Source: Candidatus Cloacimonadota bacterium (GTDB lineage Bacteria; Cloacimonadota; Cloacimonadia; Cloacimonadales; Cloacimonadaceae). From it: DNA of 64,000 nt. Shown one piece after another: positions 25,627-38,428 of the stretch. The stretch's first letter is position 1. Every line of letters starts with the position of its first letter. Under the pieces are notes generated by a model. That model did no database searches. It worked only from the letters and a program-made list of their open reading frames with translations, and had not been told where the DNA came from. The stretch is from NCBI GenBank assembly GCA_029561955.1, contig JAKQWO010000036.1:27814-91813 (forward strand), written 5' to 3'. Made by a program: the position numbers and the translations under genes.

Positions 25627-25639
25627 CGAATCCTTATGG

Positions 25640-25666
25640 AGCCCGCCTTTTGGTGGGCTTTTTTAT
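25640..25666 (+). terminator. Intrinsic terminator after the HU / small-peptide genes
   Basis: AGCCCGCC, TTTT loop, GGTGGGCT, followed by TTTTTTA. Confidence 0.75.
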
Positions 25667-25776
25667 TGGCCAGACTGCGCAGGATAAAGTCCGGCTCTCA
25701 CAATCCTATTGACAGTTTCGTGAGCTGGGAATTGCATGACCTCCAAATATCAGAACACAATGAAAGGGTAAAAGTA

Positions 25777-28700
25777 ATGAAATACTTAGATCGGATTTGG
25801 CTTAGCTTGTTGCTGCTGTTTCCTTTGCTTTTGATGGCGGGAAGTTTGCAACTGGGCTCTGGAGAAACGCTCGTAAACGTGCTGGAAAGCAGTGCGGAGC
25901 AGACTATATTACATTTTCAGATTGGCAGCTTCGAGAGTGAATCTGTCGAGATTGATAACGAAACTTGGCAGCACCTGATCCTGGAGAAAGAGGGTGTATT
26001 GCAGCTTGAAGGCTATCCCGCTTTGCCGGTGGTCAATCGCAGCATCATCATTGACGGCAGAGCACAGATGCATCTGGAGCTCTATGACGTAATTTATGAA
26101 GACCTGCAGCTCAAGGTGGCGCCCTCCAAGGGTGTGATCCCGCGCAATATTGACCCCAAGACGGTTCCTTACCGGTTTGCTGATGTCTATGAGAAGGACG
26201 AGTTTTATCCCCGCGAGATTGCCACACTCTCCGAGCCGTATATTTTGAGGGATTATCGTGGAATCACGGTCAATGCCACGCCCTTTGCCTACAATCCGGT
26301 GAGCCAGACGCTGCGCATTTTCAAGAGCTTTAAGCTGCGCATTTATGCCGAAGGCGAGAGTCAGGTGAACACGCTGGACGCCTCCCGCAGCAGCTTTAGC
26401 CGTGACTTTGAGCAGGTTTACGCTCAGCACTTTATCAACTGGCCTTCACATCGCTATACGCCTGTGAATGATAGCTTTGGCAAGCTGTTGGTGATCTGCC
26501 ACTCCAGCTTTATGGACGCTATCCAGCCCTATGTAAACTGGAAAAAGCAAAAGGGCATCGAGACTGAATTGATCAACTTTTCCACCATCGGCAGCACTGC
26601 CGCACAACTTCAATCCTACATCCAAAACCGCTATAATGCAGACAATTCCATCGCCTATGTGCAGATTGTTGGAGACGCACCCCAGATTCCCACCCTCACT
26701 CACCAAAGTGGCGGATCAGACCCCACTTTCTCGTTGGTTGCAGGTAGCGACAACTATCCGGACATCTTTATCGGACGCTTCAGTGCTCAGTCGGTGGCGG
26801 ATGTCAATGCGCAAGTAAACAAAACCATCGCCTACGAAAGGGACGCAACGACTGCCGACAACTGGCTTTCCCGCGCCATGGGCATCGCCTCAAGTGAGGG
26901 AAGTAGCAGCGCAGACAACGGCGAAACAGACATCCAGCACATGAACGTGATCAGAACTAAGCTGCTCAACTACGGCTACACCAGCGTGGATCAGGTTTAC
27001 GATCCGAATGCCTCTGCTTCGACCGTTACCAACAACGTCAATGCCGGACGTGGCTTGATCAACTATGTGGGGCACGGGGGAGACACCTCTTGGGTCACCA
27101 CCGGTTTTAACAACACCAATGCTTCCAACCTCACCAACGGCACCAAAACGCCCGTGATCATGGACGTGGCCTGCGTAAACGGCAACTTCGTTGCCAAAAC
27201 CTGCTTTGCTGAGGCTTGGCAGAGAAATGCCAACGGCGGCTCGGTGACCATATATGCCTCATCCATCAATCAGTCCTGGGCCTCTCCCATGCGGGCTCAA
27301 GATGAGTTTAACGACCTCTTGGTGGGCGAGCAGAAGTTCACCGCAGGCGGGCTTTACTACAACGCTTCCTGCAAGATGATGGACGTCTATGGGACTGATG
27401 GCGTGAATATGTTCAAGACTTGGCACATCTTTGGAGACGCTGCTCTCTTGGTGCGCAGCAAGACTCCTACTGCCATGAACGTAACCCACCCCAACAGCAT
27501 AGTTCAGGGCACCACTTCGCTGACGGTCAATACCGGAGTTGCCAATGCTTTAGTGGCTTTGACCAACAATAACAACATCCTCGGGCGAGGCTACACCAAC
27601 TCCGCCGGTACCGTCACTCTCTCTTTGAGTGGAATGCCGGAAGGCTCAGCCACTTACACCCTTACAGTCACGGCGCATAATCGAGTCACTTACATCGCTA
27701 CCGTTACCCAAGTTCCACCTTCCGGGCCTTGGATTGATGTGGAAGAGGCCACTTGGCAGGATAACAACAACGATGAGCCGGAATTTGGCGAAAGCGGAGC
27801 CTTGAGCCTGAAGCTGAAGAATTCGGGTTCAGAACCTTCTGCTGCGCTCACTCTTACCCTGTCCTGCAGCACCACCGGCGTGACGCTCACCAACAACACG
27901 CATCAGACGGATGCTATCGCAGCGGGTGTGACTGTGGACATCCATTCCGCTTTTGGCATTCAACTGGCAGATAACCTCTTGGATGGCACGGAGTTGAACT
28001 TCAGCCTGAGCATCACCTCAGGCACCCAAAGCTGGACTCATGAATTTGTCTTGATCGCCAAAGCACCAGCCTTAGCCTTGGGAGACATTCTGGTGAACGA
28101 CAGCACAGGCAACAACAGTGGCACCCTTGATCCCGGCGAAAACGTCAACCTCATCATCACGATACTCAACAACGGCGCAGCAGCCAGTCCTGCGGGAAGC
28201 GTCAGCCTCAGCTCACCCACCACCGGGATCACCATTGGCACCTCCAGCATTGATATCCAGAGCATCGCTGCGGGAGCGTCAATCCAGGTATCTTTCCCCG
28301 TCAGCGTCAGCGCCAGTATGCCTCAAGGCAGCTCTGCCAGTTTTGACGTCATGGCCATCACCGGTGCCTATTATGTCGCCCAAACCTTCCTCTTGCAGGT
28401 GGGTGATCCCATCGCGGTGACCATCGGCAACGGCACGGATACACAATCATATCCGCTGAATAGGTATTACAGTTACAGCGCGCACGAAGCCATCTACTTG
28501 AGTTCTGAGATTGGCATGGCCGGCAGGATAGAAAAGATCGCTTTCTACAAGAGCAGTGGGAGTGATACGAATCCAATTGAGGCAGTTCAGATCTACATGA
28601 AACACACTTCCAGCAGCACCCAGGACAATGGAACTTACAGCACAGCAGGTTACACTCTGGTGTTTAGCGGCAGCTATCCAAACCATAGCACCAGCGGCTG

Positions 28701-30726
28701 GATGGAAGTGCCGCTCAGCTCTCAATTTGAATACAACGGCACATCAAACCTGAGTATCCTGATCGTGAAAGGCTATCAATACTGGACAAGTGCCTATCCG
28801 AGATGGACTTATACATCTGCCAGCACCTATAGAGTCAGGCGGGCTCAAAATGACTATGGTGCTCCCACAAATCTTTCAAGGAGCTACGACCTCCCCAACA
28901 TCCGCCTCAAGATTTACCCTCAGATGAGCGGGCCTGCCATTTCCTCCAATCCTACTTCCATTTCTGCTACCGTGCATGAGGATGAAAGCGGCAGCAGCAC
29001 ACTTATCCTGAGCAATAGCGGTGACTTGCCGCTTACCTGGAACACCAATGCCTCCTTCGCCACTTGGGGCAACGTGAGCCCTACCAGCGGAACCATCCCC
29101 ACAGGTGGCTCTGTGACGCTCACTGTGAGCTATAATGCCGCATCTTTGAGCGTGGGAACGCATCATGCCTCCATCCAGATCAATTCCGATGCTACCAATC
29201 AAAACCCCTACAACATCCCCGTTTCCTTGCAGGTTTTGGCCTCACCTTATCCTCCCAGCCCGCGTTTAGTGGCCGAATGGGAGCCCGCCAAGGGAGTTTT
29301 GGTGCGCTATCCTTTAGGCTTGCCCTACAATCTATTAGCCGATATTTCACAGCACGGAAAGCTATATGTGATCGTGAGTTCATCGGATCAAAGCAGTTGT
29401 CACAGCAACCTGAGCAGCAATGGCGTCAATATGAGCAACGTGATCTACATAAATGCCAGCACAAACAGCGTCTGGGTAAGGGATTACGCCCCCTGGTTTG
29501 TCTTCGATGATCAGCGTGAGCTGCGCGTGGTGGATTTTAAATACAACCGCCCCAGACCCAGTGATAATAACGTTCCCAGCGTGATTGCCGATGCCTTGGG
29601 CTATGAGTATCACTACCTGCCTCTGGTAGCCACAGGTGGAAATATGATGACGGACGGCCAGGGCAAGATGATGTCTACCACTTTGGTGCTGGAAGAGAAT
29701 GACGGAAACCCCAACACCGGCGGTGGACAGGTGACGGAATACACCTACACTCAAGCTGAGATTGAGACCTTGGTGGAGGACTATCTGGGCGTGAGCGAAT
29801 ATCAGTTTTATCAAGACCCAAATGGCACCTACATCGATCATATTGACTGCTGGGCCAAGCTTTTGGACGTGGATAAAGTGATGATCCGCAGCGTGCCGCC
29901 ATCGCATGCTCAATACTCCGCCATCGAAGCCTCGGTAGCCGAGTGGCAGAGCAAAACTTCCTCCTACGGAACGCCTTACCGCATCTACCGTGTCAATACG
30001 CCCAACGATGAGCCCTATTCCAATAGCCTCATCTTCAACAATTACATCTATGTGCCGCTGATGGGGAACGCCAACGACGCTGCCGCTCTGCAAGCCTATC
30101 GTGACGCCATGCCCGGCTACACGGTGAACGGATACACCTATTCCGCTTTTCAGGGCACCGATGCGCTGCACTGCCGCACCAATACTATCTTTGACGAGGG
30201 CATGATCCAGATCATCCACACTCCCGTGACTACCGCCATGGCAAGCTCGCCCTTGGAGATCAATTTCAGCCTCTCTCATGTGGATGCCATAGACTTGAAT
30301 GGCTCCTACGTGGCCTATAAATCCGCCACTGATGCCACTTGGCAATATGCCACCCTCAGCTCACTGGGAAACGATGACTGGACAGCGGAGGTCATTGCAC
30401 CCGCCTTTGGAGAAGAGATGCAGTATTATATCTACGTGCAGGACAGCAGCGGCCGTCAAAGCCAGATGCCGCTCTGCGGGCCGAGCGATCCCTTCAGCTT
30501 CGTTATCGATCAGGCTTTGCCAGTCGCACCGATTGTGAATATTCAGATCGTCTCTGAGGCCGCTTATCTGAGCTGGGAAGCTGTTCCCGGGGCTGCATAC
30601 TACAAGGTCTATAAGGCCAGCTATCCTTATGGGGAGTATGAGTTTATCGGTCAGACAATTGATACTTCCTTCGACATCACACCTCTGGCAGATAAAGCCT
30701 TTTTCAAGGTGGTAAGCGGCTTTTGA
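25777..30726 (+). CDS. Secreted multidomain protein, 1649 aa. Gingipain-type C25 cysteine protease plus Ig-like repeats plus a Porphyromonas-type peptidyl-arginine/agmatine deiminase-fold domain plus a FN3-like C-terminus.
   Basis: Start moved to ATG 25777 (MKYLDRIWLSLLLLFPLLLMAG) because the track ORF begins inside the terminator. C25 catalytic His in 'INYVGHGG' (~27063) and Cys in 'MDVACVNGNF' (~27163). Deiminase motifs 'VWVRDYAPWF', 'ATGGNMMTDGQG', 'IDHIDCWAKLL' and 'TDALHCRTN' lie between ~29260 and 30240. Confidence 0.85.
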   Translation: MKYLDRIWLSLLLLFPLLLMAGSLQLGSGETLVNVLESSAEQTILHFQIGSFESESVEIDNETWQHLILEKEGVLQLEGYPALPVVNRSIIIDGRAQMHLELYDVIYEDLQLKVAPSKGVIPRNIDPKTVPYRFADVYEKDEFYPREIATLSEPYILRDYRGITVNATPFAYNPVSQTLRIFKSFKLRIYAEGESQVNTLDASRSSFSRDFEQVYAQHFINWPSHRYTPVNDSFGKLLVICHSSFMDAIQPYVNWKKQKGIETELINFSTIGSTAAQLQSYIQNRYNADNSIAYVQIVGDAPQIPTLTHQSGGSDPTFSLVAGSDNYPDIFIGRFSAQSVADVNAQVNKTIAYERDATTADNWLSRAMGIASSEGSSSADNGETDIQHMNVIRTKLLNYGYTSVDQVYDPNASASTVTNNVNAGRGLINYVGHGGDTSWVTTGFNNTNASNLTNGTKTPVIMDVACVNGNFVAKTCFAEAWQRNANGGSVTIYASSINQSWASPMRAQDEFNDLLVGEQKFTAGGLYYNASCKMMDVYGTDGVNMFKTWHIFGDAALLVRSKTPTAMNVTHPNSIVQGTTSLTVNTGVANALVALTNNNNILGRGYTNSAGTVTLSLSGMPEGSATYTLTVTAHNRVTYIATVTQVPPSGPWIDVEEATWQDNNNDEPEFGESGALSLKLKNSGSEPSAALTLTLSCSTTGVTLTNNTHQTDAIAAGVTVDIHSAFGIQLADNLLDGTELNFSLSITSGTQSWTHEFVLIAKAPALALGDILVNDSTGNNSGTLDPGENVNLIITILNNGAAASPAGSVSLSSPTTGITIGTSSIDIQSIAAGASIQVSFPVSVSASMPQGSSASFDVMAITGAYYVAQTFLLQVGDPIAVTIGNGTDTQSYPLNRYYSYSAHEAIYLSSEIGMAGRIEKIAFYKSSGSDTNPIEAVQIYMKHTSSSTQDNGTYSTAGYTLVFSGSYPNHSTSGWMEVPLSSQFEYNGTSNLSILIVKGYQYWTSAYPRWTYTSASTYRVRRAQNDYGAPTNLSRSYDLPNIRLKIYPQMSGPAISSNPTSISATVHEDESGSSTLILSNSGDLPLTWNTNASFATWGNVSPTSGTIPTGGSVTLTVSYNAASLSVGTHHASIQINSDATNQNPYNIPVSLQVLASPYPPSPRLVAEWEPAKGVLVRYPLGLPYNLLADISQHGKLYVIVSSSDQSSCHSNLSSNGVNMSNVIYINASTNSVWVRDYAPWFVFDDQRELRVVDFKYNRPRPSDNNVPSVIADALGYEYHYLPLVATGGNMMTDGQGKMMSTTLVLEENDGNPNTGGGQVTEYTYTQAEIETLVEDYLGVSEYQFYQDPNGTYIDHIDCWAKLLDVDKVMIRSVPPSHAQYSAIEASVAEWQSKTSSYGTPYRIYRVNTPNDEPYSNSLIFNNYIYVPLMGNANDAAALQAYRDAMPGYTVNGYTYSAFQGTDALHCRTNTIFDEGMIQIIHTPVTTAMASSPLEINFSLSHVDAIDLNGSYVAYKSATDATWQYATLSSLGNDDWTAEVIAPAFGEEMQYYIYVQDSSGRQSQMPLCGPSDPFSFVIDQALPVAPIVNIQIVSEAAYLSWEAVPGAAYYKVYKASYPYGEYEFIGQTIDTSFDITPLADKAFFKVVSGF

Positions 30727-31631: not shown

Positions 31632-31770
31632 TGTTGATGCGATTCGTAGACCTCTCCTTAATTGGATAGGAAATCCCTGAAACATAGTCTCCATCTACAC
31701 TTGGGAGTCAAACTACAACCTGCAACCAACAACTGGGCGACGCAGCCGGCCCTGTTCGTGGAAAAATTCA

Positions 31771-32125
31771 GATGGCGAAGCCGGCTCACGTTTGTTGAAA
31801 AAAGTGTGCATTTTTGGGGCTTAATTTCCTTGCAAAAACCAGATATTTTCGAGACATTTGCCTTTTTGAAAAGGTTCACCCCTTTCCGAGCGCCTACTCC
31901 GCCCAAACTCGTAACCTGCTGCAATCCTATGCCATTCCTGCTCCACGGAGCAGGGGGCTAACAGGGGCGGGGCTGGGAAGCCGCATAAACAGCGGCTTTG
32001 AGGGGGGTCAAAAATGGCCGTTTCCTGTAACTTTTTCCCGTGCGGAGGTCAAATTTTTCAGAAAGAGCTGCTTTTTCAGGTGCCGGAGCTCGGAAAGAAA
32101 CTCCTACTATTTTGGTAGGTGTTTG
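31771..32125 (-). repeat. Family A dispersed repeat, copy 2 (inverted relative to copy 1)
   Basis: Its reverse complement aligns with 5455-5810. Hairpin CCTACTA-TTT-TGGTAGG at 32103-32119. Confidence 0.85.
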
Positions 32126-32199
32126 ACCGTCGCTCTCTGATGACAAAATATAAACTCGCAAGCACGGAAGCATTTTCTCCACCAAACCGCACTTTGTCC

Positions 32200-32309: not shown

Positions 32310-33440
32310 ATGTTAAAAAGATTGTATGTAAACAACTACAGGTGCTTGGTCAATTTCGAGATTGGGTTTGACGCCATGACATTGCTTTTAGGCAGGAATG
32401 GCAGCGGGAAAACGAGCATCTTGGATATTCTTCACAGCATCAGAAGATTGATAACTGGCAGCGATAGAGTAGGTGAAGTCATCTCACTGGACGACATGAC
32501 AGTTTGGTTAGATTCCAAAAAGCAGACATTCGAGCTGTCAGTTGAGGGTAATGGTGGATTGTATGATTACAAGCTTGTGCTTGAGTACAATGAGAAACAA
32601 AAGGGACTGCAAATAGATTCCGAATCCCTACGATGTAATGGTATTCCGTTGTTTGATTTTTTGAAAGGGGAAGTTGATGTATATATTGATGACCGTTCCG
32701 GATTGCATTACCCTGTTGATCCGTCCTGGTCTGCACTTACCATCACAACTGACGTTAATAGAAGTGGTAGAATCGAGTGGTTCAGAAAATGGTTTGAGAA
32801 GCTATTTGTCCTGAGCATTCAGCCCCAGAATATGAGTGCTACAAGTAAATCCGAATCAGTTGGGTTGAACCTCTATGGGACGGATTTTGTTTCTTGGTAC
32901 AGGTTTATCTCCCAAGAATATCAGGACATGATCCCAGTGTTATTTAAAAACCTCAGGGATTCTATACCCGGCTTTGCTTCCTTCAGGCTGGAAACCATTG
33001 GTGACAGCAAAAAGCTGAAAGTGGGTTTTGAAAGTGAAGATAACCCCCAGAAAATACAATTCTTCGATTTTGATCGTATCTCGGATGGTGAAAGAGCACT
33101 AATCGTCTTGTATACGCTGATAATTGGATTAAAAGATCTGGGCATAACTTTGGTACTTGATGAGCCGGTTAATTTTGTTGCTTTGTCTGAGATCCAACCT
33201 TGGCTGATGGAACTCAATGATGCTTGTGGTGTTAGAGATCTACAAGATCACAGCCGTGGTATTGCCCAGACTATTATTGCCAGCCATCATCCTGAACTGA
33301 TGGACTACTTTGGGATAGATGATTGCAGGTTCCTTGATCGAGAGCCACTGGGGCCAACGCGGGTAAAACTACCATCAGCCGAGCTTGATGGCAGTTTAAG
33401 CCTCTCTGAGGTCATCGCACGGGGGTGGGAGCATGAGTAA
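32310..33440 (+). CDS. ABC-type (AAA_15/AAA_21-like, RloA-like) ATPase, 376 aa
   Basis: Walker A 'GRNGSGKTS', signature-like 'ISDGERALIVLY', Walker B 'LVLDEP' and H-loop 'IASHHP'. Confidence 0.8.
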   Translation: MLKRLYVNNYRCLVNFEIGFDAMTLLLGRNGSGKTSILDILHSIRRLITGSDRVGEVISLDDMTVWLDSKKQTFELSVEGNGGLYDYKLVLEYNEKQKGLQIDSESLRCNGIPLFDFLKGEVDVYIDDRSGLHYPVDPSWSALTITTDVNRSGRIEWFRKWFEKLFVLSIQPQNMSATSKSESVGLNLYGTDFVSWYRFISQEYQDMIPVLFKNLRDSIPGFASFRLETIGDSKKLKVGFESEDNPQKIQFFDFDRISDGERALIVLYTLIIGLKDLGITLVLDEPVNFVALSEIQPWLMELNDACGVRDLQDHSRGIAQTIIASHHPELMDYFGIDDCRFLDREPLGPTRVKLPSAELDGSLSLSEVIARGWEHE

Positions 33441-33975
33441 AAGAAGGAAAGCAACGCTCATTGTTGTCTGCGAGGATAAGCGTCAAAAGACCTTCGCATA
33501 CAGATTTTTGCTTGGCATGGGATGGGAGAGACATCAGATACACTTTAGCAAAATGTCATCAGGAAGTGGATCGGGGGCAAAAAGGGTAATAGAAACGTAT
33601 CCCCTAGAGCTGAAGATTTATAGGAGCAGACACGTTACTTGTGCCCTTGTGGTGATTATTGATGGAGATGAGCGAGGAGTTGAGGCAAGGATGCGGCAAC
33701 TTAACCAAGAATGCGGGAATTTTGGAATCCCGTGCAGGCAAAAGGAAGAAAAGGTTGCTTTCATTGTACCAACATACAGCATTGAAACTTGGATCAGGTT
33801 TTTGCAAGGATACCCGGTGAATGAAGAATTAAACTATAAGGAGAAAGTACACGATGATGAATGCAAGCCGTCTGCAGACAGGCTAGTTGAATATTGCAAG
33901 TCAACAGTTTTACCCAATAATGCGCCATCCGCCTTACGTTTGGCGTGTGATGAATACCGGGAGAGGATAAGGTGA
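33433..33975 (+). CDS. Small Toprim-like protein (RloB/DUF4276-like), 180 aa
   Basis: 8-nt overlap with the ATPase gene. 'ATLIVVCEDKRQKTFAYRF' (strand plus acidic pair) and 'ALVVIIDGDERG' (DxD) fit the Toprim E...DxD pattern. Confidence 0.55.
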   Translation: MSKRRKATLIVVCEDKRQKTFAYRFLLGMGWERHQIHFSKMSSGSGSGAKRVIETYPLELKIYRSRHVTCALVVIIDGDERGVEARMRQLNQECGNFGIPCRQKEEKVAFIVPTYSIETWIRFLQGYPVNEELNYKEKVHDDECKPSADRLVEYCKSTVLPNNAPSALRLACDEYRERIR

Positions 33976-34090: not shown

Positions 34091-34834
34091 ATGGATCCAA
34101 TAAGTGCAGCAGTCGTCATCAAAGAGGCTGCAGAAAAGACGGCTTTAGCAGTCAAAGAAACATTAAAGTTGGCGGAATTAGCAAAAGAAGGCATTAAACG
34201 TCTCAAGATAAGAGAATTGTTCAAAAGTAAAGAGCTGAGTCCCAATGCCTTAGAACTTGCCAAAGAAAACTATAAACACCTGCACAAAAAGATAAGTGAG
34301 GCTAAAGAAAATGCTGAACTTCGTGCTCCAACGATTAACCAATTGATGGATGAATCCAATAACCTAAAGGGTCAAATGGGAGAGTTCCATGCCGATCAAT
34401 ATTTTAGCAGATTCGGAGAAGTTAAAAGACAATTGTCTGTCACAACAGAAAGGGGACAATTTAGGGTGGATTTCGATGTTAGGTTGAAAAAAAACATGCC
34501 CATAAAGTCTTTCACTATGAAGGACGGAATCTTAAAGTCGAGGCGTGAAGTAATACGAGCTGGCGAGAGGATGGGCGTAGAAATCAAGAATGGCCCCACT
34601 GAATTATACCAAAACCCTGAACATGTTATCAATCAAGCCCTGGCAGCCAAAGAGTTGACGGGGAATGGCTGTATTGGAATAAGCAAAACAGTATCGGAAG
34701 CCATATGTGAAAATCCTGAATCATATGAGAAGTTTTTTAATATGGCCGCAGAAAATGATATCAGAATTATAGAGACACACCCTACAATAGATCAACAAAT
34801 ATCCGAAATAATTAGCCTGTTTAAGGAGGACTGA
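34091..34834 (+). CDS. Coiled-coil protein with a PD-(D/E)xK nuclease-like core, 247 aa
   Basis: AAGGAG precedes the ATG. The first ~90 aa are helical and K/E-rich. Then 'GEFHADQYF' (E98), 'FRVDFDV' (D127/D129) and 'GVEIKNG' (E164-x-K166). Confidence 0.5.
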   Translation: MDPISAAVVIKEAAEKTALAVKETLKLAELAKEGIKRLKIRELFKSKELSPNALELAKENYKHLHKKISEAKENAELRAPTINQLMDESNNLKGQMGEFHADQYFSRFGEVKRQLSVTTERGQFRVDFDVRLKKNMPIKSFTMKDGILKSRREVIRAGERMGVEIKNGPTELYQNPEHVINQALAAKELTGNGCIGISKTVSEAICENPESYEKFFNMAAENDIRIIETHPTIDQQISEIISLFKED

Positions 34835-35253
34835 TGCCACACATATACACAATTTCATCTGACGAGAGGTTACTAACGCTATACAATGGATTCGACATGG
34901 CTGCAGGAAATGCATTTGAAGGAGATGAAAGACAGAGATTCAAAGCCATTCTATCTGCCCGGGAGTATAGGAGTCGGCTATTGGAGCGGCTAAAAGAACT
35001 TGATGGGTCGGATAAGCCCAGGATAATAGACCCCAAAATTATTGACAACAAAGCTAACGATCAAACGCTAATAGGAAGATTTGCAGCACTCCTGCTTGGC
35101 AAAACGGACCTTGGTGAATTCATTTTGCACAACCAAGATAAGGTGGGTGAGGAGCTGAGAAGCTTGCTGAGTGATATAGAGCGAAAAACCAAAGCCGATC
35201 AATATGTGTTGTTTTGGCTTGTGAGTGAGGAGGATCAAGATGGCATTATATAA
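34834..35253 (+). CDS. Hypothetical protein, 139 aa
   Basis: Its ATG overlaps the previous stop by 1 nt (TGATG). No motif recognised. Confidence 0.5.
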   Translation: MPHIYTISSDERLLTLYNGFDMAAGNAFEGDERQRFKAILSAREYRSRLLERLKELDGSDKPRIIDPKIIDNKANDQTLIGRFAALLLGKTDLGEFILHNQDKVGEELRSLLSDIERKTKADQYVLFWLVSEEDQDGII

Positions 35254-38200
35254 GCTAAAAAGTATTAGATATTCTAACAAAATGGAGAAGATGCGAGTTC
35301 AAAATGGAAGGTCAGACGTTGTATTAGAGCTTAATAGTGGCTTCATGAACTTCCGACAGTTGCTAAAACTTGTTTCAGAACAACCAAGCTCTGACGAAGG
35401 CATCAGATTTGTTTTTCGAATCGAGTATATCAACCAGCTATTATCATATTATGTCAAAACACCCTCATTTAATGGTGATGTTTTAGATAGCTCAGGCAGT
35501 GTCTGGGAGAGGGTAGATGAATTTAATTGCGGACTGAATAAGCATGAGAAACTTTGTGGATCTTATCACATCAACGTAGCCAATGGGGCTACTACCAACC
35601 CGATAGACGATTTTGTGTCAAACAATAGAGATATGGATTTCGCTATTGAGATGGAGTTTTTCATATGCTTTTGGCCTGTTTCAAACTTTATTCTGTCAGA
35701 ACTAAGCCGGTTTATTCGTAAATTATCGGGTGAGAAACAGGAGAGTTCTAACCAGAGTGTATTGTTAGTGGGATGGTCTCAGACTGAGGTCTCTGTCGAC
35801 AAAGAGTCGCTGTTCAACTATCTTTACGACTTATACTATATCATGAATCAATCCTTTCCTCATTTCTTACGACCAGCTATCACATTTTACGCTAAGAATG
35901 AGGATGATTTGGGGCGTTTAAGGGCGTCACTATATACGGGAAGTGAAAAAATCGGTGTGAACACCAATATCCGGTATCTATTCGAAGACCGTCCTTGGGA
36001 GCTTGATGATAAACTAAGTATCCTAAATTACGACGCGCAATTGGAAATGCCAAAGCGGGTAAATAAATTATCTGATAACTTCTTTAAATACAACCAGTTG
36101 TTTAGATGTATCACAAACGTAAACTTCGTCAGTGCGCTTTTTGCTTTTCCTCAAACTAAGATACCAGGCATTAGCTACATTGAAGAGATCGATTATGGAA
36201 CCATAGATGATGCAGCGAAGCTCTCGAGTGAATATCGCTTGGGAACATTGTTTCATAACTACCAAACGCGTCTGCCTGTAACCATTGATCCAGATGATTT
36301 GGTGAAACATACGCTTGTTACAGGTGTTACAGGCAGTGGTAAAACTACTACGATCAAATCGTTACTTATGACTTTGTATGAAGACAAGAAGCCCTTTTTG
36401 ATTCTTGAGCCAGCTAAGACCGAGTATAAAGATTTAAATATAGGGGGACTTAGACGCTATATATTGGGAATTGAGACAGAAAAATGTTTGAAGATAAACC
36501 CCTTCGAGTTTCCCTATAAAAAGGGTGCGAACGGATTTCACCTCCAGACTCATTTGGATCTCTTAAAGTCAATATTCATCGCAGCGTTTCCCATGTATGG
36601 TCCCATGCCCTACGTTTTGGAAACCGCATTCTACTATATCTACCAATGGCATGGTTGGGATTTCAAGTCGGGGCACAATATCTACTGGGATGATGCTTCT
36701 GTCGATAATTCTGAGCTGTTTCCCACTCTGGACGATCTCTACAATGCTATAGATCATATCGTGAGCATTCAAGGATACTCAATTGACTTTCAAAACGATC
36801 TCACCGCAGCCCTAAAGGTAAGAGTGGGAAGTCTAAAGAGTGGTGCCAAGGGTGTCATGCTAAACACCAAGCACGGGACTGGTATAGGCGAACTGCTAAG
36901 TTGTCCCACGGTAGTTGAACTGGAACGGATAGGTGACGCTCAAGAAAAGGTCTTTATCATGGGGCTCCTTTTGGTTAGTATTTATGAATACTACATAGCC
37001 AAAGGTGCTGAATCTGAGGCAAAGTTGAGGCATTTGCTCGTTATTGAAGAAGCTCACAGATTGTTAGAGAACGTGCAACAGATCAATAACGATGAAATTG
37101 CGGACATGAAGGGCAAGGCAATCGAGACTTTTAACCACATCCTGTCCGAGATCAGGGCGTATGGGCAGGGTATCATGGTGGCAGATCAGATACCCACAAA
37201 AATCAGTCCGGATGTAGTCAAGAACACAAACCTCAAGATTATTCACCGCCTGTTTTCTCTTGATGATCGTAATGCAGTTGGAGATGCTATAGGCCTCGAT
37301 TTTAAGCAGAAGAAAGGGCTCATTAACTTGGAAGTTGGAGAGGCAATCGTGTTCCATGCCAAACTGCAGGAGGCCGTTAAAGTAAAGATTGACTCAAGAG
37401 GAAAAGAGAAGGGGAGCTTGTCCCAGAAGGTTGAACCTAAAGAGCTGAATGCCTTGGATGTAGTGATTAGCACTACTGCTATCCACTCAGAAACCAAAAA
37501 GGTGTTCCACACAGCGTTGGTATTTGATTGGAGCTATGCCAAATTGAGAGAGAAGCTGGAAAGAGTCCTTCGAAGATTCTCCATTGAACCAGATGAAGGG
37601 CTTATTGGGGAGTTGGTTTCTAACTTGGTAGAGTGGTTTGCCATCAGGCTTAGAAACAACAAATTAGTCCCTTATTCATTACCCAAAGAAAATGAGATAA
37701 AGGCTCTTGCCAAGAGTCCAGGGGATGCGATCAAAGGTCTTAGGGCTTTTATCAATATGAACTCCCATATGGTACAATTTCCCACCACATTGGAGACAAT
37801 CTCAGTTGATGCTTTGGATTATTTCATCTACGTTTATACAGAGGATCGCAAAGCAGTGGCTAAGATTATCACTGCTATCATGAATGCTCGCGTTGAGAAA
37901 TTCAGATATTACGATGAGGAAACACAGAGTATTATCATTTCAGAAGGTAGTGCAGAAAAGTACTTCTGCACTGATGATTTATCCGAAGACGAGATTATGG
38001 ATTTATGCCAGTGTATAGTCTATTTCTGTTCATACCCGCATACTGGTTTTGAGTATTACTTCGATCCATACGGCTCGCCAGTTTCAGACGATGAGTATAT
38101 GGAATACCTTGTATCATCTGATGAGAATAAGCCTGCCAATATATCGGTGATAACTCCTCCAATAGACCGCAATACTAAGGAACTTTTGGAATCTATTGCA

Positions 38201-38335
38201 GGTGGTTTGAAAGAATTTGGGCAAAAACAAGCGGGTGATCCAAATATTAAAGGATTGCTGCGCTTGCCGATAGTGTTAATGCTGATAAACAGTCTGTTTA
38301 TTATCATGGGAGTACTCTATTTGATATTCCGTTAG
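35240..38335 (+). CDS. HerA/FtsK-superfamily P-loop ATPase with a ~350-aa unknown N-terminal region and a C-terminal transmembrane anchor, 1031 aa
   Basis: Start at ATG 35240, after GGAGGA (the track start at 35225 is also possible). Walker A 'LVTGVTGSGKTTT', Walker B 'LLVIEEAHRLL', 'IMVADQIPTKISPDVVKNTNLKIIHRL'. The last 25 aa, 'LLRLPIVLMLINSLFIIMGVLYLIF', are hydrophobic. Confidence 0.8.
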   Translation: MALYKLKSIRYSNKMEKMRVQNGRSDVVLELNSGFMNFRQLLKLVSEQPSSDEGIRFVFRIEYINQLLSYYVKTPSFNGDVLDSSGSVWERVDEFNCGLNKHEKLCGSYHINVANGATTNPIDDFVSNNRDMDFAIEMEFFICFWPVSNFILSELSRFIRKLSGEKQESSNQSVLLVGWSQTEVSVDKESLFNYLYDLYYIMNQSFPHFLRPAITFYAKNEDDLGRLRASLYTGSEKIGVNTNIRYLFEDRPWELDDKLSILNYDAQLEMPKRVNKLSDNFFKYNQLFRCITNVNFVSALFAFPQTKIPGISYIEEIDYGTIDDAAKLSSEYRLGTLFHNYQTRLPVTIDPDDLVKHTLVTGVTGSGKTTTIKSLLMTLYEDKKPFLILEPAKTEYKDLNIGGLRRYILGIETEKCLKINPFEFPYKKGANGFHLQTHLDLLKSIFIAAFPMYGPMPYVLETAFYYIYQWHGWDFKSGHNIYWDDASVDNSELFPTLDDLYNAIDHIVSIQGYSIDFQNDLTAALKVRVGSLKSGAKGVMLNTKHGTGIGELLSCPTVVELERIGDAQEKVFIMGLLLVSIYEYYIAKGAESEAKLRHLLVIEEAHRLLENVQQINNDEIADMKGKAIETFNHILSEIRAYGQGIMVADQIPTKISPDVVKNTNLKIIHRLFSLDDRNAVGDAIGLDFKQKKGLINLEVGEAIVFHAKLQEAVKVKIDSRGKEKGSLSQKVEPKELNALDVVISTTAIHSETKKVFHTALVFDWSYAKLREKLERVLRRFSIEPDEGLIGELVSNLVEWFAIRLRNNKLVPYSLPKENEIKALAKSPGDAIKGLRAFINMNSHMVQFPTTLETISVDALDYFIYVYTEDRKAVAKIITAIMNARVEKFRYYDEETQSIIISEGSAEKYFCTDDLSEDEIMDLCQCIVYFCSYPHTGFEYYFDPYGSPVSDDEYMEYLVSSDENKPANISVITPPIDRNTKELLESIAGGLKEFGQKQAGDPNIKGLLRLPIVLMLINSLFIIMGVLYLIFR

Positions 38336-38388: not shown

Positions 38389-38428
38389 GCTGCAGCCGGT
38401 TTATGACTGGCTGCAGCGGTTCTGTTTG
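38389..38428 (+). terminator. Terminator candidate after the island
   Basis: GCTGCAGCC (38389-38397) pairs with GGCTGCAGC (38409-38417), followed by GGTTCTGTTTGG. Confidence 0.4.

Follow-up and report, generated by a model that had tools for sequence, protein, structure and literature searches.

A rare three-gene cassette of a HerA/VirB4-clade ATPase, a predicted PD-(D/E)xK nuclease and a small acidic protein: a candidate defence module

Three overlapping genes on the forward strand of contig JAKQWO010000036.1 (Candidatus Cloacimonadota bacterium, assembly GCA_029561955.1) are the subject of this study. We refer to them as A, B, and C, to the set as the trio, and to the whole 64,000-nt stretch of DNA that was analyzed (contig positions 27,814 to 91,813) as the window (Table 1). 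A is a predicted nuclease, B a small acidic protein, and C a large ATPase; each of them is a genuine gene for which homologues are known in other genomes. An earlier reading of the letters alone—the original prediction—had described the genes as translationally coupled, and they are: A and B share 1 nt at their TGATG junction, the B/C overlap is 14 nt long, and each gene has its own strong Shine–Dalgarno (SD) site. An in-frame GTG at 35225, upstream of the ATG of gene C, would give a protein of 1036 aa in the list of open reading frames (ORFs); we take the ATG as the real start, because GAGGAGG lies before it and because the identical database protein, P0001, begins there. The terminator-like hairpin beyond C is likely the end of the operon. 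The G+C content of the 32–38 kb stretch is 0.40–0.44, compared with ~0.52 on both sides, as is typical of an acquired island; no direct repeats or att-like sites were found flanking the island, and no tRNA or Rfam element was found near it.

Table 1. Features of the trio locus, in window positions
Feature	Position	Strand	Remarks
Gene A	34091-34834	+	ORF, 247 aa; SD site AAGGAG
A nuclease domain	34364-34795	+	Residues 92-235; PD-(D/E)xK
Predicted catalytic residues of A	E98 34382-34384; D127 34469-34471; E164 34580-34582; K166 34586-34588; Q182 34634-34636	+	
Gene B	34834-35253	+	ORF, 139 aa; SD site AAGGAGG
Gene C	35240-38335	+	ORF, 1031 aa from ATG; SD GAGGAGG 6 nt 5' of ATG
C N-terminal alpha/beta region	35240-36229	+	Residues 1-330; predicted local distance difference test (pLDDT) mostly 72-91; no family match
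C ATPase core	36230-37414	+	Residues 331-725; helical insertion ~435-555 (AlphaFold2, AF2)
Walker A LVTGVTGSGKTT	36314-36349	+	C residues 359-370; contains GVTGSGKTT
Walker B LLVIEEAHRLL	37034-37066	+	C residues 599-609
Putative arginine finger R639	37154-37156	+	By position in C core
Putative sensor Gln Q650 in MVADQIPT	within 37175-37198	+	By position; model strand 644-648
C all-helical C-terminal domain	37451-38059	+	Residues 738-940; pLDDT 81-93
Predicted flexible linker of C	38066-38170	+	Residues 943-977; pLDDT <50
C tail anchor	38246-38332	+	Single hydrophobic helix IKGLLRLPIVLMLINSLFIIMGVLYLIFR; one residue left beyond membrane
Terminator-like hairpin	38389-38417	+	13-bp stem, 8 G-C pairs, 54 nt past C stop; consensus scan only

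Is A a nuclease? The protein is laid out as an N-terminal peptide, an Ala/Glu/Lys-rich helical part (residues 1–90) that AF2 models with low confidence, and a C-terminal domain that it models with pLDDT 84–95 and the topology alpha-beta-beta-beta-beta-beta-alpha-beta. In the model E98 lies on helix 92–106, D127 on strand 122–132, E164-x-K166 on strand 160–166, and Q182 on helix 176–190. Among 1.84 billion representative proteins, a search by profile found only 31 relatives of A, all of them 203–272 aa long and matched over their full length. An alignment of 31 diverse homologues shows E98, D127, K166, and Q182 to be invariant and G94, E164, and G168 to be at least 90% conserved, so the E98...D127...E164-x-K166 pattern that the original prediction had pointed out, behind a helical N-terminus, goes beyond chance. 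The nuclease-like fold proposed there is also supported by structure comparison. The best Foldseek matches are XisH (2inb/2okf, TM-score [TMt] 0.62–0.63) and AF1548 (1y88), with probabilities of 0.99–1.0 for these three; Hef/XPF, Can2, PspGI, and PaqCI come further down, and the top matches are all PD-(D/E)xK proteins. By sequence and model, A is a protein with an intact PD-(D/E)xK active site and a predicted metal-dependent nuclease.

A falls outside the named nuclease families that we searched. Its score against Pfam RmuC (PF02646) is 17.3 bits, below the gathering score of 26, and the match covers profile positions 27–113 of 291; weak, subthreshold RmuC matches are found in 6 of 12 A-family members (best 1.3e-6), and the gathering score is not reached over most of the model. 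RmuC proteins resemble A in having a helical/coiled-coil N-terminus followed by a PD-(D/E)xK domain, but A is much shorter than the 291-position profile. No Pfam threshold was reached by A, and no match was found in NCBIfam, PHROGs, or PADLOC-DB v2.0.0 (E <= 0.1); a PDB profile search with the A family returned chance-level matches alone. At the extreme N-terminus (window 34091–34114), an M-x-E/D-P-I/V-S peptide is kept in most of the 31 family members, and the helical region behind it is highly variable in their alignment. The peptide may be a docking motif.

Which ATPase family does C belong to? Residues 333–427 match the DUF87/HerA central domain of Pfam (PF01935) with 42.6 bits against a cut-off of 23.2, and the core matches generic PADLOC HerA and mad8 models at 1e-11 to 1e-18. 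The motifs on which the original prediction had based a HerA-type core are present at the expected residues, and with DUF87 above threshold that assignment stands. When 26 homologues are aligned, K368/T369, E603/E604, R639, and Q650 do not vary. The HerA/FtsK clade is marked by an arginine finger that lies immediately upstream of core strand 4 and by a Gln sensor-1 at the strand end (PMC10853773); R639 and Q650 of C, judged from their place in the sequence, fit these two features. C has, as far as sequence can tell, every catalytic hallmark of a ring-forming nucleoside triphosphatase of the HerA/FtsK superfamily.

At the level of named families C stands apart. Its best NCBIfam matches are CedD (1e-26) and HerA_antiphage (2e-12), all far under the curated cut-offs: C scored 30.6 against 970 for helicase_HerA, 46.6 against 800 for HerA_antiphage, and 28 against 850 for HerA_antiphage_2, and it also missed the cut-offs of the VirB4 models TIGR00929 (20.7 vs. 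643), NF045975 (31.6 vs. 590), and NF045971 (11.8 vs. 325). A PDB profile search with the C family recovered HerA chains only—Thermococcus HerA best at 2.8e-12, then SIR2-HerA at 2e-9 and DUF4297-HerA at 6e-9—and no VirB4, VirD4, or FtsK. Foldseek with the AF2 model (pLDDT 77.7) matched both VirB4 (TrwK 8rtd, 4ag5) and HerA (4d2i, SIR2-HerA, DUF4297-HerA, TdpAB) at E ~1e-10; the matches to 4d2i, 8wiv, 8xav, and 9x1m have a probability of 1.0 at E ~1e-10 and show a RecA-like core with a helical insert. Structural likeness to VirB4 is common to the whole superfamily and therefore does not discriminate. Because Foldseek matches both families and the profile search recovers HerA chains only, C is, from sequence and model, a P-loop ATPase of the HerA/VirB4 clade that is nearer to HerA by sequence and is no orthologue of any named HerA.

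Viral proteins also match C. Among the structures in BFVD, those nearest to full-length C are of large phage proteins: a 913-aa protein of Bacillus phage JL (S5MSQ0; E 9e-16 over ~1015 aligned columns) and, further, gp156 and gp155 of Bacillus phage G. A PHROG with unassigned function (phrog_7035) matches the C core at 1e-18. A tblastn search with C, run over 50,697 records from phages and 72,556 from plasmids, gave matches to the core only (coverage <=47%), weak ones in the phage genomes, and no trio-type copy.

The core is framed by domains that are private to the trio. HerA proper is ~500–700 aa long and has an N-terminal HAS-barrel directly before the ATPase; C has 1031 aa and a 330-aa alpha/beta N-terminus, after which a beta-hairpin (residues 332–349 in the AF2 model) is the sole element directly before the P-loop. 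The original prediction had recognized no motif in the N-terminal region, and we likewise found no family match there. It had also noted a C-terminal extension ending in a hydrophobic helix, which resolves into an all-helical domain, a linker, and a helix at residues 1008–1030 in the AF2 model; the terminal stretch, LLRLPIVLMLINSLFIIMGVLYLIF, is the sole segment in C of transmembrane (TM) grade on the Kyte–Doolittle scale. Hidden Markov models (HMMs) of C residues 1–300 and 730–1000 match the ATPases of all 14 loci with A and B and of none of 39 comparison loci, which have a related ATPase core and lack A and B. This split is strong evidence that the private domains of C work with A and B, and the N-terminal region is a candidate docking platform for either or both.

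How general is the membrane anchor? The tail anchor is present in all close relatives. In the clade of ~1000 aa (P0001–P0012, P0021–P0046, and L019; loci are given by our own labels, L001 and so on) the tail anchor is fixed in position and varied in sequence. The earlier description of C as a tail-anchored ATPase thus applies to the window and to this clade but not to the Paenibacillus clade, which has no anchor by the Kyte–Doolittle scale. The Paenibacillus-type operons (L001:4612-11089, L011:3719-10055, and L053:3694-10796) consist of the trio, with a C that lacks the tail anchor, plus extra genes for which no homologues were found in the window. Their extra upstream block, which is conserved, encodes a classical AAA+ ATPase of 323–363 aa, a 117-aa protein whose N-terminus carries a TM helix, and a pair of ~130-aa paralogues, of which one has a TM helix; L001 also has a 91-aa paralogue of the 117-aa protein, downstream. 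N-terminally anchored small membrane proteins are always in the operon of this tail-less clade. The complementary pattern of anchor and small membrane proteins suggests that membrane association is important and can be provided in cis or in trans.

B is less informative. It is acidic (pI 5.0, net charge -6), and conservation is high at two positions only: D10, and W128 in a C-terminal 'YVLFW-x-x-x-EE-x-D' motif. No match to B was found in Pfam, PADLOC, NCBIfam, PHROGs, or PDB, Pfam scans of all B-family members gave scattered single-member noise only, and a PDB profile search with the family gave chance-level matches alone. Its homologues, recognized by position and by HMM, are confined to trio loci. 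Judging from its position, we predict that B is an adaptor or inhibitor of A.

Do the three genes travel together? Through context look-ups and a genome scan we gathered ~11 distinct trio loci from at least three phyla, in Cloacimonadota-like metagenomes, Paenibacillus (L001, L011), Terrisporobacter petrolearius (L051), and a Bacteroidota metagenome-assembled genome (MAG). The order A-B-C is kept in the window, L001, L002-4, L005-8, L009, L011, L051, L052, L053 (a read-archive assembly contig whose accessory genes are 54–63% identical to those of L001), and L058-59; the Bacteroidota MAG (L019) has a divergent form. B and C overlap by 13–23 nt in every trio locus but L009. Across the loci, identity falls to 15–25% for A and B and is 32–47% for C; synteny and the B/C overlap persist, and local HMMs of A and B match trio loci only. 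Co-occurrence of the three genes outside the window, on which the original prediction depended, is therefore established, with a constant gene order and a usually similar overlap. Relatives of the window that are 80% identical (L005-8) lie at the same EamA/C25-peptidase locus. A close relative may have or lack the trio at one and the same locus, with variable neighbors. Overall, the three genes are inherited together across phyla.

What surrounds the trio? In three locus groups it is embedded in BREX loci: between PglX plus GmrSD and PglZ/BrxL in L002-4, between a PglX-like gene plus an AAA_21/180-aa/helix-turn-helix (HTH) set and PglZ/BrxL in L058-59, and directly after BrxC-PglX in Terrisporobacter (L051). 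This is a small sample, assessed without a formal statistic. In the window and L005-7 its neighbors include OLD/PARIS-like AAA_21 ATPase pairs together with an RloB pair, and in L001 they include SNF2, NOV_C, and JetD_C genes. Enrichment near or embedding within defence loci, for which the original prediction had proposed a test, is borne out within the limits of this sample by the BREX groups together with the AAA_21/RloB, GmrSD, and SNF2/NOV_C/JetD neighbors. Most genes that are embedded in BREX, DISARM, restriction–modification, or Hma loci serve in defence, and many of the rare cassettes among them are unnamed (Payne et al., 10.1101/2024.01.29.577857); the trio fits this description and is absent from the PADLOC models of that study. 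PADLOC-DB v2.0.0, including its HEC and PDC candidates, holds no system with all trio components and matches the C core only generically. Grouping with conjugation or secretion ATPases had been named as one outcome against the original prediction, yet the trio-type ATPase is not found among conjugation genes: no relaxase, coupling-protein, VirB6/VirB8, pilin, or other mating-pair gene was found in the ~11 trio loci, and the only integrase is one fragment at L052. Two loci have other surroundings. The trio at L009 lies just downstream of sbcCD, and its ATPase gene is followed by one for a 156-aa MIT_C-domain protein (L009:11389-11859); at L019 the neighbors are phage-like.

C itself belongs to a wider family of HerA/VirB4-like ATPases of ~1000 aa, with at least 812 database matches. 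A second cassette built on this family, which we call type 2, is found in L018, L020-L044, and L049 (e.g., L035:3212-11683 and L043:2940-10969). It is a four- or five-gene cassette encoding a coiled-coil protein of ~284 aa, a ~944-aa protein, the ATPase without a tail anchor, a ~234-aa protein (25 loci), and a ~176-aa protein, and its hosts are Clostridia, Veillonella, Treponema, Photobacterium, Acinetobacter, Pseudoalteromonas, and Atlantibacter. The type 2 partner proteins, likewise uncharacterized, have no Pfam or PADLOC match, and we rejected a distant kinship with A or B (hhalign probabilities <1%). SMI1/KNR4-family proteins are toxin-immunity proteins, and one of them belongs to a third partner set. 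This set is carried by E. coli plasmid pTW10590_133 (L054; NZ_CP035852.1 44388-59836), where, by the record annotation, two dynamin-family genes and a hypothetical gene precede a related 1084-aa ATPase, an overlapping HNH/EndoVII nuclease, and the SMI1/KNR4 family protein. Other relatives share the core only, at ~34–42% identity: L056 (Rhodococcus opacus pRoPD630_2), L010 (Trichocoleus), and L057 (Planktothrix p1). Their neighbors are MobC, relaxase, and a type IV secretion system (T4SS) coupling-protein gene, or many small ORFs on an MPF_T-typed plasmid. Part of the wider C family may be conjugation ATPases.

How does the trio compare with characterized systems? Among the nearest is DUF4297-HerA (PDB 8xau, 8ziq, 9c1n; PMC11291478), whose chains are matched by C in profile (see above) and fold. 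Like the trio it sets a HerA-family ATPase beside a nuclease, DUF4297, which is reported to be a homologue of Cap4 (10.1101/2024.10.24.620088); the expected logic is the same, with an ATPase hexamer that scaffolds and activates the nuclease. DUF4297-HerA differs in having two genes and a soluble HerA of ~570 aa, where C has 1031 aa, unrelated end domains, and a tail anchor. A is of another, much smaller nuclease family (247 aa, RmuC/XisH-like, no PADLOC match), and the trio has the orphan B in addition. SIR2-HerA (Nezha; PDB 8wiv, 8sub, 8j4u) also combines a HerA-type ring ATPase with an effector and matches C by profile and fold, but the effector is a SIR2 NADase, there are two genes, and there is no membrane anchor. 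HerA-NurA and TdpAB (PDB 4d2i, 9x1l, 8wfd) share with the trio a motor, a nuclease, and, on the model given below, DNA passing through the ring; NurA, however, is no PD-(D/E)xK protein and HerA-NurA is a housekeeping complex, while TdpAB senses phosphorothioate (PT). The partner of C is not NurA, SIR2, or DUF4297: A folds like XisH/AF1548 and has no PADLOC match at E <= 0.1. VirB4/TrwK (PDB 4ag5, 8rtd) gives the best superposition on the C core (TMt 0.70) and resembles C in its large N-terminal domain and membrane association, but no T4SS genes lie near any trio, VirB4 chains are missed by the profile, and the TIGR00929 score is far from its cut-off.

Two further comparisons concern the mode of action. 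The HerA/FtsK capture systems (DndH, ORC/Cdc6-REase-HerA, and BRC; PMC10853773, PMC12839542) pair a translocase with an active nuclease of restriction-endonuclease (REase) fold for a proposed interception of invader DNA, and C shares their Gln sensor-1 and Arg finger features. They are, however, fusions to REase, methylase, or helicase domains or have ORC/Cdc6, STAND, or PglZ partners, and DUF87, RmuC, and tail-anchored forms go unmentioned in both papers. SNIPE (10.1101/2025.11.03.685801) places a nuclease at the cytoplasmic membrane; its proteins are unrelated to the trio and include no ATPase motor; the likeness is to the proposed mechanism only. What is known, then, is the combination of a HerA-family ATPase with an effector or nuclease in defence. 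New are the ~1000-aa ATPase clade with its private domains and tail anchor, nuclease family A, and the orphan B, which are undescribed in the libraries and literature searched. The original prediction rated the trio as the most likely undescribed system in the window; this holds in that A and B are in none of the libraries searched and the trio recurs, and is to be tempered in that a HerA ATPase with a nuclease is already a known kind of defence.

What might the trio do? We favor, as just on the probable side, the view that the trio is a defence module complete in itself, directed at phages or other mobile DNA and akin to the systems that pair a HerA-type ATPase with a nuclease. Several points weigh against this view. 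Defence is assigned from association and embedding only, and the family is so rare (31 A representatives in 1.84 billion proteins) that statistical support is limited. By fold, the C core is as near to VirB4 as to HerA (4ag5/4ag6 TMt 0.68–0.70, with TrwK 8rtd_O the top match by E-value), and core-only relatives of C adjoin relaxase and coupling-protein genes. For A, Foldseek returns weak E-values (8e-3 to 2e-2, and up to 0.2 over the list from XisH to PaqCI), though the probabilities are high and the top matches consistent. We infer the A-C, B-C, and A-B contacts and the hexameric state of C, and the role of B is a guess because the protein has no recognizable fold or motif. Finally, a clade of 905–937 aa, to which the named Paenibacillus and Bacillus proteins belong, lacks the tail anchor by the Kyte–Doolittle scale, and the membrane tether may accordingly be dispensable.

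How could such a module work? C would assemble as a hexamer whose six C-terminal tail anchors, on flexible linkers of ~35 residues, tie it to the inner face of the cytoplasmic membrane. A would bind to C by way of the conserved peptide at the N-terminus of A and the helical arm, and would be kept inactive, or positioned, by the small acidic B. Foreign DNA—most plausibly linear DNA entering at the membrane—would be engaged, threaded by the motor, and cut by the ring-bound nuclease. There would be two parallels. The HerA-NurA motor passes DNA on to its nuclease. For DUF4297-HerA, both enzymes become active when the nuclease assembles on the HerA hexamer, and double-stranded DNA is cleaved by the complex (PMC11291478). 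The membrane location may supply part of the discrimination between self and nonself, by analogy with SNIPE, a membrane-bound nuclease that discriminates by location and cleaves phage DNA while the genome is being injected (10.1101/2025.11.03.685801). The full proposal is a new type of immune machine, a hexameric, membrane-tethered motor that captures entering DNA and feeds it to a ring-bound PD-(D/E)xK nuclease gated by B, with discrimination by location and DNA ends rather than by sequence or modification; the trio would then be the first characterized member of an ATPase family with at least 812 hits that serves as a common engine for several partner sets, namely the type 2 cassette and the HNH plus SMI1 set. 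We advance this as a tentative possibility.

The defence context fits equally a system of the abortive-infection or toxin–antitoxin-like kind, in which A would be a host-toxic, nonspecific DNase, B its stoichiometric inhibitor, and C a membrane sensor or switch. DUF4297-HerA is reported to act through abortive infection (PMC11291478). The coupling of A and B in the order nuclease, then small acidic protein, is typical of nuclease/inhibitor pairs, and the pTW10590_133 relative, with its HNH/EndoVII nuclease and SMI1/KNR4 protein after the ATPase, supports A and B as nuclease plus inhibitor. C would respond to phage attack by removing B or by assembling A into an active oligomer, with destruction of both host and phage DNA. 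We consider this reading unlikely: binding of B to A is conjectural, B has a net charge of -6 without a basic partner (the nuclease domain of A has a pI of 6.0), and a cytoplasmic suicide nuclease needs no membrane tether.

FtsK-like EssC drives type VII secretion, and C could by the same token be a membrane-associated secretion ATPase that exports a toxin against other bacteria, with A as a nuclease toxin that has a helical trafficking region and B as its immunity protein. The gene order—toxin-like, immunity-like, ATPase—would suit such a locus, as would the membrane anchor of C, the conserved N-terminal peptide and helical region that precede the enzymatic domain of A, the small membrane proteins and AAA+ ATPase added in Paenibacillus operons, and the HNH/EndoVII and SMI1/KNR4 genes coupled to the ATPase in the E. 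coli plasmid relative, which keep this reading alive. Polymorphic toxins, however, combine a constant N-terminus with variable toxin domains and immunity genes, and A is not polymorphic: 31 of 31 representatives, of 203–272 aa, share the catalytic domain. Cloacimonadota-like bacteria and Bacteroidota are diderm, and Paenibacillus and Terrisporobacter are monoderm; the same three-gene set occurs in both kinds of lineage without envelope-specific partners. One tail helix per subunit offers no obvious channel, and repeated embedding in BREX is no known habit of toxin-export loci. Toxin export is therefore improbable.

Very improbable, in our judgment, is a DNA-transfer or selfish element, with C as a VirB4/CedB-like transport or segregation ATPase for the transfer, uptake, or maintenance of the integrated element that retains it and A as a processing nuclease. 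VirB4 does give the best fold match by TM-score and, through TrwK, by E-value; the best NCBIfam match of C is to CedD, a DNA-translocating ATPase, alongside weak VirB4 matches; core-only relatives lie by MobC, relaxase, and T4SS coupling-protein genes (pRoPD630_2) or near a relaxase (Trichocoleus); and L019 has phage-like neighbors. Against this, the VirB4 and CedD scores are far under their NCBIfam cut-offs, the PDB profile search returned no VirB4 chain, no full-length match was found in the 72,556 plasmids or 50,697 phages, and the ~11 loci are free of transfer genes and, bar the L052 fragment, of integrase. Scarcely credible is a housekeeping repair module that resects DNA ends like archaeal HerA-NurA, as might be read from a HerA-type ATPase beside a nuclease, the sbcCD neighborhood of L009, and the weak RmuC similarity of A, since the distribution is extremely sparse and patchy, the genes lie in a low-GC island, come and go among close relatives at one locus with variable neighbors, and are embedded in BREX loci, the helicase_HerA score is 30.6 against 970, and the A fold is not that of NurA (RNase H-like).

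Which neighboring genes could be mistaken for parts of the module? Directly upstream in the window lie a gene for a 376-aa ABC/AAA_21-AAA_15 ATPase (32310-33440; PADLOC AriA 2e-18, HEC-01A 1e-16) and, overlapping it by 8 nt, one for a 180-aa protein without annotation (33433-33975). This AAA_21 plus 180-aa pair precedes the trio in the window, L005-7 (where another gene pair intervenes), and L058-59. We rejected it as part of the trio, because it is missing from L001, L002, L009, L051, and L052; it is a separate companion module. ORFs of 133, 131, and 113 aa located 5' of the trio in L005-L008 are probably not parts of it either: they are low-complexity or repeat-derived and are absent from the other loci and the window. 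The 133- and 131-aa ORFs (L006:4537-5386, also in L007 and L008) are of low complexity, the second holds MWGNRGGERDQDFGQASPQVEEIYPRITRINTNY twice through an internal duplication, and both look like a repeat element rather than genes. Further upstream, the window has ~520 bp of extra noncoding DNA (31640-32160) between the EamA gene and the AAA_21 promoter region relative to L005 and L006, which are 80% identical to it; the only ORFs there are short, overlap one another, and are implausible, and neither Rfam nor tRNA matches were found. The window also encodes a 1696-aa secreted-looking protein (25636-30726), whose 1649-aa homologue in L005 combines Peptidase_C25 (gingipain-like) domains and a PAD_porph (peptidylarginine deiminase) domain on a single chain.

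What would the trio add to the biology of these bacteria? The direct ecological weight of the trio is probably small, because the family is rare and found mostly in uncultured anaerobes. Its repeated insertion between PglX and PglZ supports guilt by embedding as a guide to rare systems, those too scarce to have passed the cut-offs of earlier screens. Should the trio prove to be a defence system, it would add a membrane-tethered form to the HerA-plus-effector class, along with two families, A and B, that are new to annotation resources. If the proposed mechanism is true, the trio would provide a test of whether a DNA motor restricts at the site of DNA entry, an idea for which the unrelated SNIPE is the only demonstration to date. 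Finally, the trio is a way into a widespread, uncharacterized family of ~1000-aa HerA/VirB4-like ATPases with at least three partner sets.

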